From the NCBI GenBank assembly GCA_039915685.1, contig JBDSMU010000069.1:2394-66393 (forward strand): 64,000 nt of DNA, given 5' to 3'. The DNA comes from Gemmatimonadales bacterium (GTDB taxonomy: Bacteria; Gemmatimonadota; Gemmatimonadetes; Gemmatimonadales; GWC2-71-9). The notes beneath the pieces were generated by a model. That model ran no database searches and was not told where the DNA came from. It worked only from the letters and a program-made list of their open reading frames with translations. Position numbers and translations under genes: made by a program. This document shows positions 37,605-48,439 of this stretch, piece after piece; position 1 is the stretch's first letter; every line of letters begins with the position of its first letter.

Positions 37605-38531
37605 CTACCGTGGTTCGGCACCGAACAGGAGCATCAGCGTTTGCGGGTCAACCGGCTTCACCCAGTGATCGTCGAAGCCCACCTCGCGAGAGAGCTTGCG
37701 GGCCTCGTCCTGACCCCAGCCCGTGAGGGCCACAAGCCGGAGACCATTGTGGTTGTCGCGCTGTCGCATCTGGCGCGCGACTTCGTACCCGTCCATCCCC
37801 GGCATCCCGATGTCGAGCAGCGCGGCGTGTGGGCGAAACGTGTCGAGCGCATCAAGGGCGCCGGCACCGTCGTACACCACACGCACCGTCGCGCCCATCA
37901 ATTCGAGGATTGTGCCGAGACTGTCGGCGGCGTCACGGCTGTCATCCACCACCATGATGCGACGTTCTGCGCCACCCATCTGAGGAATCGACGGATGCGA
38001 TCCCGTGTCCCGCACCGTGGAAGGGTTCAGATCGGCATCGGCATCGGCATCGGCACCCGCCATCGCCACGAGCGCGTCGCCCGACAACCGGAAGTCAGTC
38101 CAGCCGTGTGTCGGCTCCGCGCCGATCGAGTGATAGAATCCGATCGCGAGTTCATTCCAGTCGAGGACCGACCATTTGATCCGCGCACAGCCGCGTTCCT
38201 GCGCAATGGACGCAATCCGCCCCAGCAGGCGCTTGCCCACGCCGTGCCCCCGGAACACGGGATCGACGAAGAGATCCTCCAGCCAGATACCCCGTTTTGC
38301 CAGGAAGGTCGAGTAATTGTGGTGGAAGAGTGCGAACCCTGCCGGTGCGCCGTCCACCTCGGCAATCAGCACCTCCGCCGCCGGTTCGGCGCCGAATAAT
38401 GACTCCCGCACCCCTGCCTCGGTTGCAACGCATTGGTCGCCAAGCTTCTCATACTGGGCGAGCCCCGCAATGAACCGTCGGATCACCGGTACGTCGGACA
38501 CTGTTGCGTTCCGGACCACGGGCTCCGTCAT
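37605..38531 (-). CDS. GNAT N-acetyltransferase (diamine/SSAT-like) fused to a C-terminal receiver domain
   Basis: GNAT core IWLEDLFVDPVFRGHGVGKRLL. Linker GADADADADLN. REC IMVVDDS..ALLDIGMPGMDG..ALTGWG..VKP. Confidence 0.85.
   Translation of the reverse strand: MTEPVVRNATVSDVPVIRRFIAGLAQYEKLGDQCVATEAGVRESLFGAEPAAEVLIAEVDGAPAGFALFHHNYSTFLAKRGIWLEDLFVDPVFRGHGVGKRLLGRIASIAQERGCARIKWSVLDWNELAIGFYHSIGAEPTHGWTDFRLSGDALVAMAGADADADADLNPSTVRDTGSHPSIPQMGGAERRIMVVDDSRDAADSLGTILELMGATVRVVYDGAGALDALDTFRPHAALLDIGMPGMDGYEVARQMRQRDNHNGLRLVALTGWGQDEARKLSREVGFDDHWVKPVDPQTLMLLFGAEPR
38031..38054. repeat. Hexanucleotide microsatellite (ATCGGC)x4 encoding (Ala-Asp)4 in the GNAT-REC linker
   Basis: Read directly: atcggc atcggc atcggc atcggc. 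In frame on the minus strand as GCC GAT x4. Confidence 0.9.
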
Positions 38532-43030: not shown

Positions 43031-46000
43031 ATGAGGGAGCTTGTCGTGGCAGCGATCGATCCCGAGCAGCCAGAATTCGGCATCCCCGCCGAGGCGGTGT
43101 ACACCGCGGTGCTCGAAGCCCAGTCCGCCGTTGCATTCGAGGCCGTGCCAACGAGCAATGGCTCGGGGCCCATCGCGGCGGCACCCGCCGCGCCGCCCAG
43201 CCCGCCTGCACCGCCGGTGCCCGAGGGCGCGGTCCAGCTCAAGGGGCCACCGCTTCGGTTGGCGCAAAACATGGACGCATCGCTCTCGATGCCCACCGCC
43301 ACAACCTTCCGCGAGCTGCCGGTCCAGGCACTCGAGGCCCGTCGAGCCGAGATCAACGCCGCCCTGAAAGCAGCGGGTCGAAGCGAGAAGCTGTCATTCA
43401 CCCATCTGATCGCGTGGGCGCTGGTGCGCGGCAGCCGTGAGTTCCCGGTTATGGGCACAAGCGTGCTGCAGTCTGGCGGCAGCACCTACCGGATCGATCC
43501 GAAGCACGTGAACCTCGGGTTGGCCGTCGACGTCGAACGGAAGGATGGCTCGCGGGGCCTGGTGGTCCCGGTTCTCAAACAGGCCGACACGATGGACTTC
43601 GCCGGATTTCTCGCCGCGTACGAGACGATCGTCGACAAGGCGCGCAACAACCGGCTGATGCCCGACGATTTCGCCGGCGCCACCATGACGCTTACCAACC
43701 CGGGAGGGCTGGGCACGGTGGGCTCCGTGCCACGGCTGATGATGGGACAGGGAACGATCTTCGCCACCGGCGCGATCGCCTTCCCACCGGCCTTCGCCAC
43801 CGCCGACATGGCCACAATTCGCCAGCTCGGCATTTCCAAGGTGATGATGCTCACCAGCACCTACGATCACCGCGTGATTCAGGGTGCCGAATCGGGGAGC
43901 TTCCTGCGGCTCGTCGAACAGTTGCTACGCGGCGAACAGGCCTTCTACGAAGAAGTTGCCGGCTCGATCGGGATCGCCCTCGGATCGACTTCAGCCGCCA
44001 CACCGGTAACTCCGCCTGCGCAGCCGATCGTGCTCACCCCCGGTTCCGCCGTTGCCACCACGGCGCAGGTCGACGCCGTCGCCGCGGCGATGATGCTTGT
44101 CAACGCGTATCGCACTCACGGGCACCTTGCCGCATCGCTCGACCCGCTCGGTACCGACCCGGTGGGCGATCCGGCGCTTGATCCTGCATCGGTCGGCCTG
44201 ACTCCGGAGCTGATGGCGGCGATACCAGCTGCGCCGCTGCGGGTGGCGGTCCCGGGGACCACCCTGGCTGATGCGTTGGCAAACCTTCGCGCCACCTACT
44301 GCGGAACGATCGCCTACGAAGTCGAGCACATCGCGTCGCACGAGCGCCGTGCATGGCTGCGCGAGCAGATCGAGTCAGGGGCCAATCGTGTCAGGCTGAG
44401 CGACGACGACAAGAAGGCAGTACTCACCCGGCTCACCCAGGTCGAGGGCCTCGAACGCTTTCTCGGCAAGGCATATCTCGGGCAGAAACGGTTCTCGATC
44501 GAAGGCGTCGACATGATGGTGCCGATGCTCGACCGCGCCTTCGAGATCGCCTCCGAGGCGGGAGTGCGCGACGTGGTGCTGGGCATGGCCCACCGCGGGC
44601 GGCTCAACGTGCTATCACACACGGTCGGTCGTCCGTATGAAACGCTCTTCGCGGAGTTCGAGGGTGCACGGCATGAATCACAGACGTCTGCACCGGATGG
44701 TGGCACCGGCGACGTGAAATATCACGCCGGTGCATCGGGTGCGTTCGCGGCGCGAAACGGCAAGTCGCTGGGCGTGACGCTGCTGCCCAACCCGAGTCAC
44801 CTGGAGTTCGTCGGTGCCGTGGTGGACGGCCGCACCCGCGCGCTGCAGACCAACCGTCGCGGACGCGATGCGCATTTCGACTCGACGATCGCGCTGCCGG
44901 TAGTGATCCACGGCGATGCGGCATTCCCGGGGCAAGGTATCGTGGCCGAGACGCTCAACCTGGGAGGACTGGAAGGCTACCGCACGGGCGGCACGGTGCA
45001 CCTGATAGCCAACAATCAGGTTGGCTTCACCACCGATCCGGGCGAGGCCCGTTCGACCCGATATGCGTCTGACCTCGCCAAGGGATTCGACATCCCGATC
45101 ATCCACGTCAACGCCGACGACCCCGAGGCATGCCTCTCGGCGATCGAGCTCGCGATGGCATATCGCATCACTTTCCACGACGACGTGGTGATCGACCTTG
45201 TCGGCTATCGCCGCCATGGGCACAACGAGGGCGATGAGCCCAGCTACACCCAGCCGACGATGTACAATCGGATTCGTGACCTGCCAACGGTGCGAGAGCG
45301 CTACGCCACAGCGCTTGAGGCGGATGGTACGATCGCCGCTGGTGAGGGCGATGTGATGGCCGAGGCGACGTACCAGAACTTCGTCGAGATCCAAACATCG
45401 TTCAAGGCGTCGCTGGCCAGCAATCGCCCGCGCGAAGAGACGCCGCGCGAACCCGGTTCGGTCGAATACACCGATACTGCTGTTGACGCAGAAACGCTCA
45501 CGGCACTCAACGAGCAACTGCTGGCGTTTCCGGCAGGGTTCGCGGTACATCCCAAGCTCGCCCGCCAGCTCGAACGGCGGCGGGGTACGCTGCAGGATGC
45601 ACACGGAATCGAATGGGGCCACGCCGAGGCCCTGGCGTTCGCCTCACTCCTCGTGGAGGGCACACCGCTCCGACTCACCGGGCAGGATGTGCAGCGTGGC
45701 ACGTTCTCGCACCGGCATTTGATGCTGCACGACGTGAACACCAATGCCCAGTGGGCACCGCTGCAGTCACTGCCAGGCGCGCAAGCACCGATCGAGGCGT
45801 ACAACTCACCGCTCTCCGAGTTGGCCGCTATCGGCTTCGAGTATGGCTATGCAACCGCAGCGCCCGAAGCCTTGGTGCTGTGGGAGGCGCAGTTCGGCGA
45901 CTTTGTCAACGGCGCGCAGGTGATGCTCGACCAGTTCGTGGCGGCCGGATACAGCAAATGGGGCGTCACGTCACGCCTCACGCTGTTGCTGCCCCATGGC

Positions 46001-46630
46001 TACGAGGGACAGGGTCCGGAGCACTCCAGCGGTCGGGTCGAACGGTTCCTGCAGTCAGCGGCCGAAGGGAACATGCGGGTGGTGAACTGCTCAACGTCGG
46101 CACAGTACTTCCATGTGCTCCGCAGGCAGGCGCGCTGGTCGATGCAGCGCCCGCTGGTGATCATGACCCCCAAGTCGCTGCTGCGCCTCCCGGCTGCGAG
46201 CTCGTCGCTCGACGACCTGGCGCAAGGACGATTCCACACCGTGATCGACGACAAGCGCTCCGACGACGACGCAGCGACGGCGAAGTCGATCGTGCTCTGC
46301 AGCGGCAAGATCTACTACGACCTGATGGATGAAGCGGGCGCGGGCGCGGTGCCGGTTGTGCGGGTCGAACAGCTCTACCCCTACCCCGAGCACGAACTAC
46401 GGGAATTGCTCAATCGGTATCCAGCCGTCACGGACGTGGTGTGGGCGCAGGAGGAACCACGCAACATGGGCGGATGGACGTTTATCGAACCTCGCCTCCG
46501 CGCGACGCTGGCCGACAGAGCACAGCTCCGCTATGTGGGACGGCCGGAACGAGCCTCGCCCGCCGAGGGTTATCCGGGGGCGCACAAGGCCGAGCAGGCG
46601 CGAATTGTGTCGGAGGCGAGGGGCGGCTGA
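43031..46630 (+). CDS. odhA: Multifunctional 2-oxoglutarate dehydrogenase E1 with an N-terminal E2-type acyltransferase domain (OdhA/Kgd type)
   Basis: 1199 aa. N-terminal catalytic-domain motif TSTYDHRVIQGAESGSFL, followed by the E1o sequence (GMAHRGRLNVL, GDVKYH, HGDAAFPGQG, HGYEGQGPEHSS). No lipoyl domain. Confidence 0.9.
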   Translation: MRELVVAAIDPEQPEFGIPAEAVYTAVLEAQSAVAFEAVPTSNGSGPIAAAPAAPPSPPAPPVPEGAVQLKGPPLRLAQNMDASLSMPTATTFRELPVQALEARRAEINAALKAAGRSEKLSFTHLIAWALVRGSREFPVMGTSVLQSGGSTYRIDPKHVNLGLAVDVERKDGSRGLVVPVLKQADTMDFAGFLAAYETIVDKARNNRLMPDDFAGATMTLTNPGGLGTVGSVPRLMMGQGTIFATGAIAFPPAFATADMATIRQLGISKVMMLTSTYDHRVIQGAESGSFLRLVEQLLRGEQAFYEEVAGSIGIALGSTSAATPVTPPAQPIVLTPGSAVATTAQVDAVAAAMMLVNAYRTHGHLAASLDPLGTDPVGDPALDPASVGLTPELMAAIPAAPLRVAVPGTTLADALANLRATYCGTIAYEVEHIASHERRAWLREQIESGANRVRLSDDDKKAVLTRLTQVEGLERFLGKAYLGQKRFSIEGVDMMVPMLDRAFEIASEAGVRDVVLGMAHRGRLNVLSHTVGRPYETLFAEFEGARHESQTSAPDGGTGDVKYHAGASGAFAARNGKSLGVTLLPNPSHLEFVGAVVDGRTRALQTNRRGRDAHFDSTIALPVVIHGDAAFPGQGIVAETLNLGGLEGYRTGGTVHLIANNQVGFTTDPGEARSTRYASDLAKGFDIPIIHVNADDPEACLSAIELAMAYRITFHDDVVIDLVGYRRHGHNEGDEPSYTQPTMYNRIRDLPTVRERYATALEADGTIAAGEGDVMAEATYQNFVEIQTSFKASLASNRPREETPREPGSVEYTDTAVDAETLTALNEQLLAFPAGFAVHPKLARQLERRRGTLQDAHGIEWGHAEALAFASLLVEGTPLRLTGQDVQRGTFSHRHLMLHDVNTNAQWAPLQSLPGAQAPIEAYNSPLSELAAIGFEYGYATAAPEALVLWEAQFGDFVNGAQVMLDQFVAAGYSKWGVTSRLTLLLPHGYEGQGPEHSSGRVERFLQSAAEGNMRVVNCSTSAQYFHVLRRQARWSMQRPLVIMTPKSLLRLPAASSSLDDLAQGRFHTVIDDKRSDDDAATAKSIVLCSGKIYYDLMDEAGAGAVPVVRVEQLYPYPEHELRELLNRYPAVTDVVWAQEEPRNMGGWTFIEPRLRATLADRAQLRYVGRPERASPAEGYPGAHKAEQARIVSEARGG

Positions 46631-46642
46631 GCCGCCCCTCGT

Positions 46643-47074
46643 TCAGCTCGGCGGGAGCAGCGGACGCTCGCTCGCCTGACGGGCAAGTTGCTTGAGCGGG
46701 TCTGACAAGTGTTCGCCGTAGTGCAGTAGGAACACGCCCCGGGCGCGGCGGGCCATCAAGAATGCCATCAACGGTGTATCGGCCTTCGCGGCGTTGCACG
46801 GCCGGCACGCGAGCACCAGATTGTCCGCGCGATCGTACGCGGACTGGCCGCGTCGCGGGCGGACATGGTCCAACGTGATGGTTTCAGCGGGAACGCGGGT
46901 ACCGCAGTAAGCGCACACTGATCCGTGGCGCGCGAGCAGCCATTCACGGTGCGATCCGTAGGCACGACCCGGCGATCGGCGAAGCCCACCACCCTTCTGC
47001 GCTGTTCCTGTCTCTTCTGCTTCTTCCACTGGCGGGGCAACGGCAGTGCCGCCCCGGCGTCTCGAACGTGCCAC
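46643..47074 (-). CDS. Stand-alone HNH endonuclease
   Basis: CAYCG...LDHVRPR...DNLVLACRPCNAAK. GTG start 5 nt after AAGGA. Convergent with odhA, 12 nt apart. Confidence 0.8.
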   Translation of the reverse strand: MARSRRRGGTAVAPPVEEAEETGTAQKGGGLRRSPGRAYGSHREWLLARHGSVCAYCGTRVPAETITLDHVRPRRGQSAYDRADNLVLACRPCNAAKADTPLMAFLMARRARGVFLLHYGEHLSDPLKQLARQASERPLLPPS

Positions 47075-47124
47075 GTAGATCCTTCTCGGTTACTGGGTCC
47101 AGCGCGGAAAGATAGTCGGAGAAA

Positions 47125-47244
47125 GGTTGAAGGGTTGAAGGGTTGAAGGGTTGAAGGGTTGAGGGGTTGAGGGGTTGAGGGGTTGAAAGGTTGAAAGGTT
47201 GAAAGGTTGAAGGGTTGAAAGGTTGAAGGGTTGAAAGGTTGAAG
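47125..47244. repeat. 15-copy 8-bp tandem repeat GGTTGARR (G-rich on plus strand, G-free on minus strand)
   Basis: Units read directly: GGTTGAAG x4, GGTTGAGG x3, GGTTGAAA x3, then AAG/AAA/AAG/AAA/AAG. Contiguous, with no spacers. Confidence 0.95.
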
Positions 47245-47263
47245 GGCAAATGGAGAGAGGGGG

Positions 47264-47325
47264 ATGACGGATGACCGACTCACCGTTTGTCGGTCATCGG
47301 TCATCGGTCATCGGTCATCGGTCAA
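47264..47325. repeat. Heptamer array (CGGTCAT x4 + CGGTCAA) with two inverted copies, forming a 10-bp hairpin
   Basis: ATGACGG ATGACCG AC (47264-47279) / loop tcaccgttt / GTCGGTCATC (47289-47298). Direct heptamers span 47291-47325. The last unit contains the stop codon of the 47322-48155 gene. Confidence 0.9.
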
Positions 47326-48155
47326 CCGCCCACAGCCACCAACCAGGCCGCCAGCAGAATCGCCGCGACCGCCACCAAAACCCGCGTCGTCACCGACTGC
47401 GGGAGCCGAGCGCCGTGTTCGGCCCCGTCGAGGAACGACGGAATCAGCATCGGATGGCGGGCACGAACGGCATCCAGGGACCCGAGCACCTGCTCGGCCC
47501 GTGTCGGGCGGCGGGAGACATCGGGGTCGACCATGCTGTCGATCAGGTGATGCAGCTCGGGCGGAAGCGCCCGGCGGTGGCGTGACAACGGCAGTGGTGT
47601 CCCGGCCGGGAGATCGCCGGCAAGGAGCGCATAGGCCACTTGGCCCAGTGCGTCGAGGTCATCCCGGACAGTTCCGGTACCGGCGGTGTCGACCCCGCCC
47701 AGCACCGCACCACGATCGGTCAGGTAGACCGCATCGAGGCCGAGCGCGCCGTGGGTCAAGTTGCGACGATGAAGTGAGGCCAGCGCTCTGGCGAGGTCCC
47801 GCAGCGCCGCGATAGCCTCGGGAACCGGAAGGGCCGACCGTCGAGCCAGCCGCTCTCGTAGCGTGAGTCCCTCGGGGCGGGCGGTGACGAGGCAGGCGTG
47901 ACCGTCGACCTCGGCGGTGTCCCCGGGGGCTACGAGCGCCGCATGCTGCGCTGCTCGAAAGCGGTCGACCATGCTTCTCAATGCTTCAGGCGTGGGACCG
48001 ATTGGTGCGCGCGGGTAGACCGTCACGAGGGCGGCGTCGCGGCCCCGGGTCGCCGCATAGCGGTACGACCCATCGGGAGAAGGGAGTCGATCGCCGATCA
48101 TCAAGTCGCCGCCAATCGCCAGGCGGATGCGTGCACGCAAGCTGTCATTGCTCAT
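47322..48155 (-). CDS. Membrane-anchored protein-kinase-like protein (predicted pseudokinase)
   Basis: Kinase-fold spacing, but the Gly loop, VAIK Lys, HRD (HRRNLTHGA) and DFG (LGG) are all degenerate. C-terminal TM helix VLVAVAAILLAAWLVAV. Confidence 0.65.
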   Translation of the reverse strand: MSNDSLRARIRLAIGGDLMIGDRLPSPDGSYRYAATRGRDAALVTVYPRAPIGPTPEALRSMVDRFRAAQHAALVAPGDTAEVDGHACLVTARPEGLTLRERLARRSALPVPEAIAALRDLARALASLHRRNLTHGALGLDAVYLTDRGAVLGGVDTAGTGTVRDDLDALGQVAYALLAGDLPAGTPLPLSRHRRALPPELHHLIDSMVDPDVSRRPTRAEQVLGSLDAVRARHPMLIPSFLDGAEHGARLPQSVTTRVLVAVAAILLAAWLVAVGG

Positions 48156-48439
48156 ACCGGCCCGTTGAGGTCATGGTCAGGGGGATCGGGGCCGCTCAAA
48201 GCGACCGGAGCAAACCATCCATGCATCACGCGTGCCGGAACCCAAGTACCCGGGCTGGGTGGAAACCGGCGGGGGGCCGGGCTCCCGGATCCCAATCGGG
48301 GCGCCATGTCCACGCTCTGTGTGTCACGACTGCCACATTAAGCCGGTGACAGGCGGAGCTCGGCCGCCCATCTTGCCTGCCGTCCGCCTTGCCGGCGCCC
48401 ACAGCCCGGTAACACCGTTGATCGCACCGCGCGGGGCCC

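Follow-up and report, generated by a model that had tools for sequence, protein, structure and literature searches.

The DNA considered here is a window of 64 kb from a metagenome-assembled genome (MAG) of a member of the Gemmatimonadales, and coordinates given without a sequence identifier are positions in this window. The element of interest is an 8-bp tandem array (47121–47246, minus strand) located in the 247-bp non-coding spacer that separates two minus-strand genes with domain support, a kinase-like gene (47322–48155) and, downstream of it, an HNH endonuclease gene (46643–47074). The latter encodes a protein of 143 aa from a GTG start and matches the Pfam HNH family with an E value of 2.5e-8. 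RNA read from the sense strand of the spacer is predicted to comprise, in order, a hairpin built from heptamer repeats (47263–47324), which begins at the TGA stop of the kinase-like gene; a unique, pyrimidine-rich linker of 18 nt, CCCCTCTCTCCATTTGCC (47245–47262); some 120 nt of unpaired, G-free repeat; and a 50-nt leader (47075–47124), followed by the GTG of the HNH gene. Hairpin, linker and leader are all assigned to the minus strand, and the leader is conserved across the clade to which the window belongs.

Fifteen full units stand head to tail between 47125 and 47244, reading GGTTGARR on the plus strand and YYTCAACC on the minus strand, which is the sense of the genes. Tandem Repeats Finder (TRF) delimits the array at 47121–47246, with a period of 8, 15.8 copies, 92% matches and a score of 189, the best of any tandem array in the window. 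The units are ordered in blocks, four of the AAG type being followed by three of AGG, three of AAA and then AAG, AAA, AAG, AAA and AAG. An earlier note on this DNA had described 15 copies with these variant blocks and had taken the latter as a sign of expansion by slippage; the unit read-out and TRF both confirm the description, and variant blocks of the slippage type are indeed present. The alternating end of the array resembles a 16-bp super-unit, a pattern that multi-unit slippage yields. A scan of the window for two consecutive GGTTGARR units returned 14 matches, all within the array, compared with 0.4 expected from shuffled sequence, and no second array of this unit elsewhere in the 64 kb; nor did any part of the window match an Rfam family. 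An independent assembly, that of SRR26386584 by Logan (L006), recovers the beginning of the array on the HNH side, after which its contig breaks within the repeat, and the exact copy number of 15 is therefore derived from one assembly.

The possibility that the array is a coding repeat, as part of a 178-aa open reading frame (ORF) on the minus strand (46768–47304), was considered and rejected on the basis of the 8-bp unit, the out-of-frame overlap with the HNH gene and the presence of unrelated arrays in orthologues. Since the array is non-coding, the suggestion that a unit length other than a multiple of 3 could make it a copy-number switch does not apply.

The composition of the array is extreme. 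Its sense RNA would contain 0% G, 48% C, 28% U and 24% A, and its best 78 nt hold 40 C and no G, and no other stretch of that length in the window comes near it in C>G skew (a ratio of 40, compared with a 99th percentile of 1.9). These values uphold the earlier observation that, with both flanking genes on the minus strand, the G-rich strand is the template and read-through RNA is G-free and C-rich. The array is predicted to be unpaired in folds of the sense RNA, the region being less structured than its shuffles (z +1.4), and it has neither a Shine-Dalgarno-like motif nor an ATG, GTG or TTG in the sense direction; GAGG and AAGG motifs, as well as TTG and TGA, occur on the G-rich strand. Some 80 nt or more of unstructured RNA with C in excess of G on the transcribed strand is the composition of a Rho utilization (rut) site, and the array has it. 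The repeats are predicted to form no regulatory hairpin in the 5′ untranslated region (UTR) of the type known from hmw1A: pairing of the array with the purine-rich 5′ coding region of the HNH gene was tried as a candidate and rejected, the best fold pairing only the last unit and the centroid none. On the plus strand there is a potential G-quadruplex (G4) motif at 47132–47182, with seven consecutive tracts of three or four Gs connected by TTGA or TTGAA loops (4–5 nt). It has the four or more tracts of at least three Gs, with loops of 1–7 nt, by which such motifs are recognized, and is one of only three regions of this kind on both strands of the 64 kb. Eight of the 15 units lie outside it, five of them AAA units with GG only and three of them separated AAG units with an isolated GGG.

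The same spacer can be followed in relatives. Its nearest relatives in the genome collection, three species (L008, L009 and L010), have 87%, 83% and 84% DNA identity to the window, respectively, and their collinear flanks align on both sides up to the spacer, which itself does not align. In the sense of the HNH gene, the spacer of the window consists of the (TGACCGA)5 hairpin followed by (YYTCAACC)15; that of L008 of (TCATCSG)4 (TTCTCCG)6 (TAGTCTC)5; that of L009 of (CTAGAGA)4.4 and then a decayed CCCTTCAA array, which is the unit of the window, with 3 perfect copies; and that of L010 of (AAGCCGT)5.7, a small core hairpin and (TCCGTTC)4.4 (TCCAGTC)5-7. Two MAGs, L242 and L243, share the arrangement of L010, and the Logan contig L244 exceeds these three by a single TTTCCAG unit. 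One and the same HNH protein, P0002, is found with a TCYAGTC-type array (L242, L243 and L010) or with a CCCTTCAA-type array that abuts the leader (L245). The comparison of copy number across relatives that had been proposed as a check thus finds a hypervariable region, with different arrays in each species and a difference of one unit within the sister lineage.

What the four spacers of the window and L008–L010 have in common is that tandem 7/8-mers fill nearly their whole length, and that their composition runs from purine-rich at the upstream stop to pyrimidine-rich at the HNH start. The best 78-nt C/G ratio is 3–5 in the orthologous array-bearing spacers (40 in the window itself), exceeding the window-wide 99th percentile in each case, and the array-free spacer of L246 has no C>G skew. 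The spacer is a hotspot of array birth, expansion, decay and replacement. Tracts of three Gs number zero in the arrays of L008, L010 and L242–L244, the plus-strand equivalents of whose units are GAGACTA, GAGAACG and GACTGGA, so that the orthologous elements have not retained the G tracts that selection for a G4 would have preserved. As the sequence of the unit differs among orthologous spacers, neither GGTTGARR nor the G4 motif is conserved. A scan of the JGI metagenomes with the conserved HNH leader gave 0 matches to orthologous spacers, which indicates that those metagenomes do not include the window clade.

The arrays also leave a mark on assemblies. Short-read contigs from several samples end exactly inside them (L002–L007, L244, L245 and L247), which shows that the repeats split up metagenome assemblies to the left and right of the HNH gene, and for several HNH homologues (P0004, P0005, P0009 and P0013) the only contigs, of 500–560 bp, scarcely exceed the gene in length. 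The practical consequence is that short-read assemblies break at arrays on either side of this gene.

Arrays of this kind are abundant in the order. In a sample of 81 Gemmatimonadales sequences amounting to 890 kb (L008–L087 and the window), 7 is the modal repeat period, with 34 arrays of at least 4 copies, compared with 11 of period 8, and 35 of 40 period-7 arrays are intergenic according to a crude gene call based on GC content at third codon positions. Almost every locus has its own unit, and most of the 7/8-mer arrays are without G-runs. Dispersal of one unit to many genomic sites, as seen for STRR1–3 (short tandemly repeated repetitive sequences) of cyanobacteria and for the GGGAATC repeats, is not seen in either the 64-kb window or the 890-kb sample: GGTTGARR recurs in L009, which belongs to the sample, and in L245, a separately fetched Logan contig, in both cases at the orthologous site. 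A perfect (ATCGGC)x4.2 hexamer repeat is also present in the window at 38031–38055 (TRF score 50), and its 6-bp period is compatible with coding.

Beyond the order, three-unit GGTTGARR arrays are present in 10 viral and at least 120 metagenome contigs, covering a GC content of 0.33–0.72 and including samples from the human gut. The idea that GGTTGA/TCAACC is a sequence-specific recurrent motif was rejected, three permuted units being equally frequent as arrays in viral contigs: GGAGTTRR, GGTGTARR and GGATTGRR gave 8, 12 and 4 matches, compared with 10 for GGTTGARR. The unit is therefore not special, and very large collections simply contain many arrays built from arbitrary 8-mers. At the metagenome and viral loci with GGTTGARR arrays, 105 of the 161 other arrays have a period of 7 or 8. 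An inverted partner accompanies 37 of 130 GGTTGARR arrays, 30 of these pairs being purine-first and 7 pyrimidine-first, and the remaining 93 are solo. The set of metagenome matches is not purely prokaryotic, as GGTTGARR also matched telomere-like sequence in L114, L124 and L125 (AACCCTA x59 in L114), probably of eukaryotic origin. Another 7/8-nt array lies within 300 nt of the GGTTGARR array at 26 of 119 loci, with units such as CGGAGAAG, GACTTTT, GAAATCT, ATCTATT and GCAGAAT; L108, L110, L115, L118, L120, L134, L140, L141, L151 and L154, which are unrelated metagenome contigs, provide examples, and in such contigs the second array often comes immediately after the GGTTGARR array. Clusters of several arrays look widespread outside the Gemmatimonadales.

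The orientation of the GGTTGARR arrays relative to genes is strongly biased. Plain ORF calls are confounded by TGA stops and TTG starts within the array, and the analysis was therefore made with the array masked and with flanking ORFs of at least 150 aa. A start codon follows within 40 nt for 22 of the 40 arrays with the C-rich strand in sense, compared with 3 of the 35 with the G-rich strand in sense, and the bias is reversed after stop codons. The array of the window obeys this polarity rule, its C-rich strand being in sense and its end lying 50 nt 5′ of the HNH GTG. With near-perfect head-to-tail units, a non-coding site, variation between genomes and adherence to a placement rule, it is a member of the class of long simple sequence repeats (SSRs) with units of 7–9 nt. 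Rather than being particular to this locus, the array belongs to a general class of 7/8-nt intergenic repeats of which descriptions have been published (PMC4692102).

Paired arrays are found on the opposite side of the HNH gene, where the 2-oxoglutarate dehydrogenase E1 (sucA-like) gene (43031–46630, plus strand) is convergent with it. The spacer between the two measures 12 bp in the window and 11–12 bp throughout the window clade, the arrays of which sit on the other side of HNH. In about 11 other species it contains a GC-rich core hairpin between two complementary 7/8-nt arrays (z about -4 to -15), such as those at L016:6415-6520, L017:6418-6550, L024:6418-6570, L029:6415-6560, L032:6445-6620, L033:6425-6570 and L246:1378-1505. 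The arm pairs include GAGAAGG/TCTCCCT, GCGACAG/TGTCGCC, GCGAACA/GTTCGCC, GGCTGAT/AGCCATC and GGTTGAT/ATCAACC. The units differ from species to species, yet the arms remain complementary, which implies compensatory change of entire arrays. Whether or not they contain arrays, convergent spacers almost always have a purine-rich 5′ half and a pyrimidine-rich 3′ half. Where purine-rich arrays start at a stop codon, each 7-nt unit contains TGA, TAA or TAG in around 7 of 14 cases (judged by eye), so that every reading frame meets a stop soon after the gene; such stop-bearing arrays lie at 47290–47324 of the window, L010:5805-5850, L032:6445-6495, L033:6425-6470 and L246:1378-1410. In the sucA-like product (1199 aa), E1 is fused to a 2-oxoacid_dh (E2-like) domain at its N terminus, as judged from precomputed Pfam matches of the L001 orthologue.

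The HNH protein is conserved across the Gemmatimonadales, with 469 homologues and 330 loci in species-representative genomes, and a kinase-like gene upstream of HNH is an arrangement kept in many species. The product of that gene gives only sub-threshold matches to Ser/Thr-kinase domains, has a C-terminal hydrophobic tail and found no relative in a sequence search of the PDB; catalytic motifs appear to be missing, and it is probably a pseudokinase. In the hairpin at the end of this gene, (TGACCGA)x5 at 47290–47324, which is (TCGGTCA)x5 on the plus strand, pairs with GTCGGTCATCCGTCATC at 47263–47279, with a folding energy of -31 to -34 kcal/mol and a z of -3.7. With its strong stem the hairpin is terminator-like, but it lacks the full make-up of an intrinsic terminator, being followed by CCCCCUCUCUCC and not by a U-run, and a scan of 46400–48400 for consensus promoters and terminators found nothing. 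The HNH leader contains a Shine-Dalgarno-like GAGAAGGA at 47080–47087 and, at 47107–47114, TATCTTTC, which aligns with TAnnTTTG-like or CGTT promoter elements of other Gemmatimonadales and may itself be a promoter element. Two promoter-like designs are found 5′ of HNH across the order, about 95 nt upstream of the gene in L011–L041. One of these, CGGAAC-N14-TTAGCGTT, resembles a promoter of the extracytoplasmic function (ECF) sigma factors, and the other, TTTG-N19-TAnnTTTG, resembles that of the Bacteroidota. The window clade retains TATCTTTC, and repeat arrays fill the zone of the upstream -33/-35 element.

We consider it probable that the array is a long SSR of the 7–8-nt class, generated by slippage and filtered for composition, in a dispensable spacer. 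An array of this kind, bordered by the heptamer hairpin on the kinase side and by the conserved leader on the HNH side, would arise by replication slippage and keep changing, its variant blocks and 16-bp super-unit recording successive expansions. The sequence of the unit would be arbitrary and its strand polarity and composition constrained, such that purine-rich arrays come to lie next to stops and pyrimidine-rich, G-poor arrays next to starts on the mRNA sense. The sense transcript would not fold, would form no RNA G4 and would offer neither a Shine-Dalgarno-like motif nor a start codon, which may be why an array is tolerated right before a gene. Any effect on HNH would be exerted through length or composition, by way of the spacing between signal and leader, a long unstructured leader or a possible entry site for Rho, and not through the GGTTGARR sequence or its G4 potential. 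The anatomy, the turnover between species, the abundance of the class, the polarity and the absence of predicted structure are observed; we infer that slippage is the mechanism, that selection is the reason for the polarity and that the array has no sequence-specific role.

Several observations weigh against this interpretation. All four species still have tandem arrays in this one spacer, and these are always C>G in sense, which may reflect selection for some function (Rho loading or that of a spacer, for instance) over mere tolerance. The period-7/8 arrays of the 890-kb sample lie within 300 bp of HNH in 29 of 52 cases, distributed over 17 of the 81 loci, a raw count that is not normalized to comparable intergenic junctions, and such a concentration around HNH is not predicted by a purely neutral genome-wide process. 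The copy number of the window array is near the top of the range of 3–15 that covers 129 of the 130 other GGTTGARR arrays, and the gene boundaries used in the orientation tests derive from crude ORF calls. As to the cause of the concentration beside HNH, the sucA terminator, the HNH nuclease and chance are all options.

Alternative explanations differ in what they make of the composition and position of the array. It is possible, though unlikely, that it is a Rho-loading insulator, its G-free, C-rich sense RNA serving as a rut site at which read-through from the kinase-like gene past the hairpin is ended or the HNH leader is attenuated whenever translation of HNH ceases. No other part of the 64 kb approaches the C/G ratio of this array, which is predicted to be unpaired; the skew recurs in the orthologous array-bearing spacers and is lacking in the array-free one of L246; and the upstream hairpin, having no U-run, may be leaky. 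However, Nostoc has repeats of this class that obey the same placement rule (PMC4692102), and Rho is lacking in all Cyanobacteriota examined (PMC11347177; PMC13289151), so it cannot be the general explanation; moreover, HNH itself would be silenced by a constitutive rut site directly before it, unless its promoter lay downstream of the array. The earlier suggestion of a rut-like element therefore stands with respect to composition, C>G and predicted lack of structure being features of all four array-bearing spacers, and falls as an account of why such arrays exist in general. The pyrimidine-rich array could alternatively be an orphan or extended terminator arm, acting as the 3′ arm or tail of one of the terminator-like hairpins that, in this order, would grow arms of tandem 7/8-mers. 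Its rPyrimidine:dPurine hybrid, behind the heptamer hairpin, would be weak and might aid release of the transcript. The array follows a repeat-built hairpin of -31 kcal/mol, hairpins of complementary arrays around a GC core fill the HNH/sucA spacers of about 11 species, and purine-first polarity is dominant in folded convergent spacers. We nevertheless think this improbable, as there is no complementary GGTTGAAG-type arm on the sense strand and 93 of 130 GGTTGARR arrays elsewhere are solo as well.

A copy-number rheostat, in which gain or loss of 8-bp units would shift the distance or phase of upstream signals relative to the HNH leader, or the length of the 5′-UTR, and so tune HNH in the manner of hmw1A, appears decidedly unlikely. 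As with the hmw1A repeat (PMC12721329), the array is rich in pyrimidines on the sense strand and stops 50 nt short of the GTG; it occupies the zone of the -33/-35-like promoter element of other species, and in the sister lineage strains that share one HNH protein can differ by a single unit or in the type of array. Nevertheless, no long hmw-like hairpin is predicted to join the repeats to a G-rich partner, HNH is a conserved gene rather than a surface or contingency gene, and Rehm et al. found no link of such repeats to phase-variable gene classes (PMC4692102). Highly improbable, finally, is a roadblock in which the unwound G-rich template strand would fold into a G4 and stall RNA polymerase or the replisome between the genes. 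As a sequence motif, the G4 that the earlier note had recognized is real, with its seven consecutive tracts and loops of 4–5 nt at one of only three such places in the window, and comparable GGGAATC and GGGGAYT repeats do form G4 in vitro (PMC4692102). It is not conserved, however: the orthologous arrays of L008, L010 and L242–L244 are without any G3 tract, most arrays of the class in the Gemmatimonadales lack G-runs, 8 of the 15 units of the window lie outside it, and the permuted control units are equally common. The interpretation offered in that note is, overall, partly supported.

A slippage-generated, composition-filtered repeat, as favoured here, carries little weight as an isolated element, its class and placement rule having already been published. 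Of more interest than the array itself are the replacement of arrays at a fixed site with polarity and skew retained, the co-changing hairpin arms, and the concentration of arrays beside HNH. The comparative series shows a single spacer, in collinear genomes, occupied by unrelated 7/8-nt arrays that keep polarity and C>G skew, while neighbouring terminator-like hairpins swap both arms together. The series amounts to a natural experiment that sets composition and polarity against sequence or G4 potential as the target of selection, and it bears on the function of bacterial heptamer-class repeats and the preference for 7 nt, a question that has stood since STRR were described. A wider reading, which we judge unlikely, is that the 7–8-nt arrays of Gemmatimonadales, and probably those of many environmental bacteria, constitute a self-renewing intergenic module whose function would reside in polarity and composition. 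Arrays would be purine-rich at stops and pyrimidine-rich towards starts, paired arrays would act as extendable terminator hairpins that co-change between species, and the 15-unit array would be the pyrimidine-rich half, insulating HNH through Rho entry or a weak RNA:DNA hybrid. A bolder variant, which can only be suggested and for which the 29 of 52 arrays within 300 bp are the sole basis, is that the HNH nuclease itself promotes the formation of arrays in its own flanks.

Several known systems invite comparison. Cyanobacterial STRR are 7-bp tandem intergenic units, often forming intergenic hairpins, for which roles in transcript stability or translational coupling have been proposed (PMC2670836); they comprise few unit families with many copies per genome, whereas the units of Gemmatimonadales are locus-specific and are replaced between species. 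In Geobacter metallireducens, three to five tandem units of 7–8 nt (such as TCTCCGTS, GTTGCTYN and MTYCTGA) occur in intergenic regions, mostly as pairs on opposite strands (PMC2700814), but these are multicopy families that have been read as binding sites of global regulators, in contrast to the locus-specific units of the type found in the window. The one functionally dissected case among the systems compared is the (ATCTTTC)n repeat in the 5′-UTR of the Haemophilus influenzae adhesin genes hmw1A and hmw2A, which is transcribed, varies in length, forms a long hairpin with a G-rich region and is cleaved by RNase III (PMC12721329). It shares with the window array a pyrimidine-rich, heptamer-class SSR on the sense strand upstream of a start codon; the window array differs in having no such hairpin predicted and in preceding the gene of a conserved HNH nuclease. 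With rut sites the array shares some 80 nt or more of C-rich, G-poor and, by prediction, unstructured RNA, but rut sites are not normally perfect tandem repeats; Gemmatimonadota are not among the phyla listed as lacking Rho (PMC11347177).

The closest counterparts are the repeats described by Rehm et al. in 2015 (PMC4692102), who reported heptameric SSRs to be over-represented in many bacteria, notably those with large, GC-rich genomes that are not pathogens, credited the over-representation itself to earlier work by Mrazek and colleagues, and cited an explanation in which slippage is tied to the footprint of the polymerase. The GGGAATC and GGGGA(C/T)T repeats of Xanthomonas and Nostoc are mainly intergenic, consist of 2 to 26 units, some of them arranged as inverted pairs, and differ widely among close relatives in both length and sequence; they form G4 in vitro and have no known function (PMC4692102). 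When placed within about 50 bp upstream of an ORF, they have the G-rich strand in antisense, and when placed just past a stop, in sense (PMC4692102). The array of the window differs from these in its 8-nt unit, in having G3 tracts in only part of its length, and in that its unit is no dispersed family, being unique in the 64 kb, just as the units of Gemmatimonadales are locus-specific. A literature search on tandem repeats in Gemmatimonadetes/Gemmatimonadota found no description of such repeats, and the class appears to be previously unreported in this phylum. Both the window array and those repeats are intergenic tandem SSRs of the 7-nt class that vary between relatives, have G4 potential and obey the same placement rule, and the element of the window belongs to this published class.

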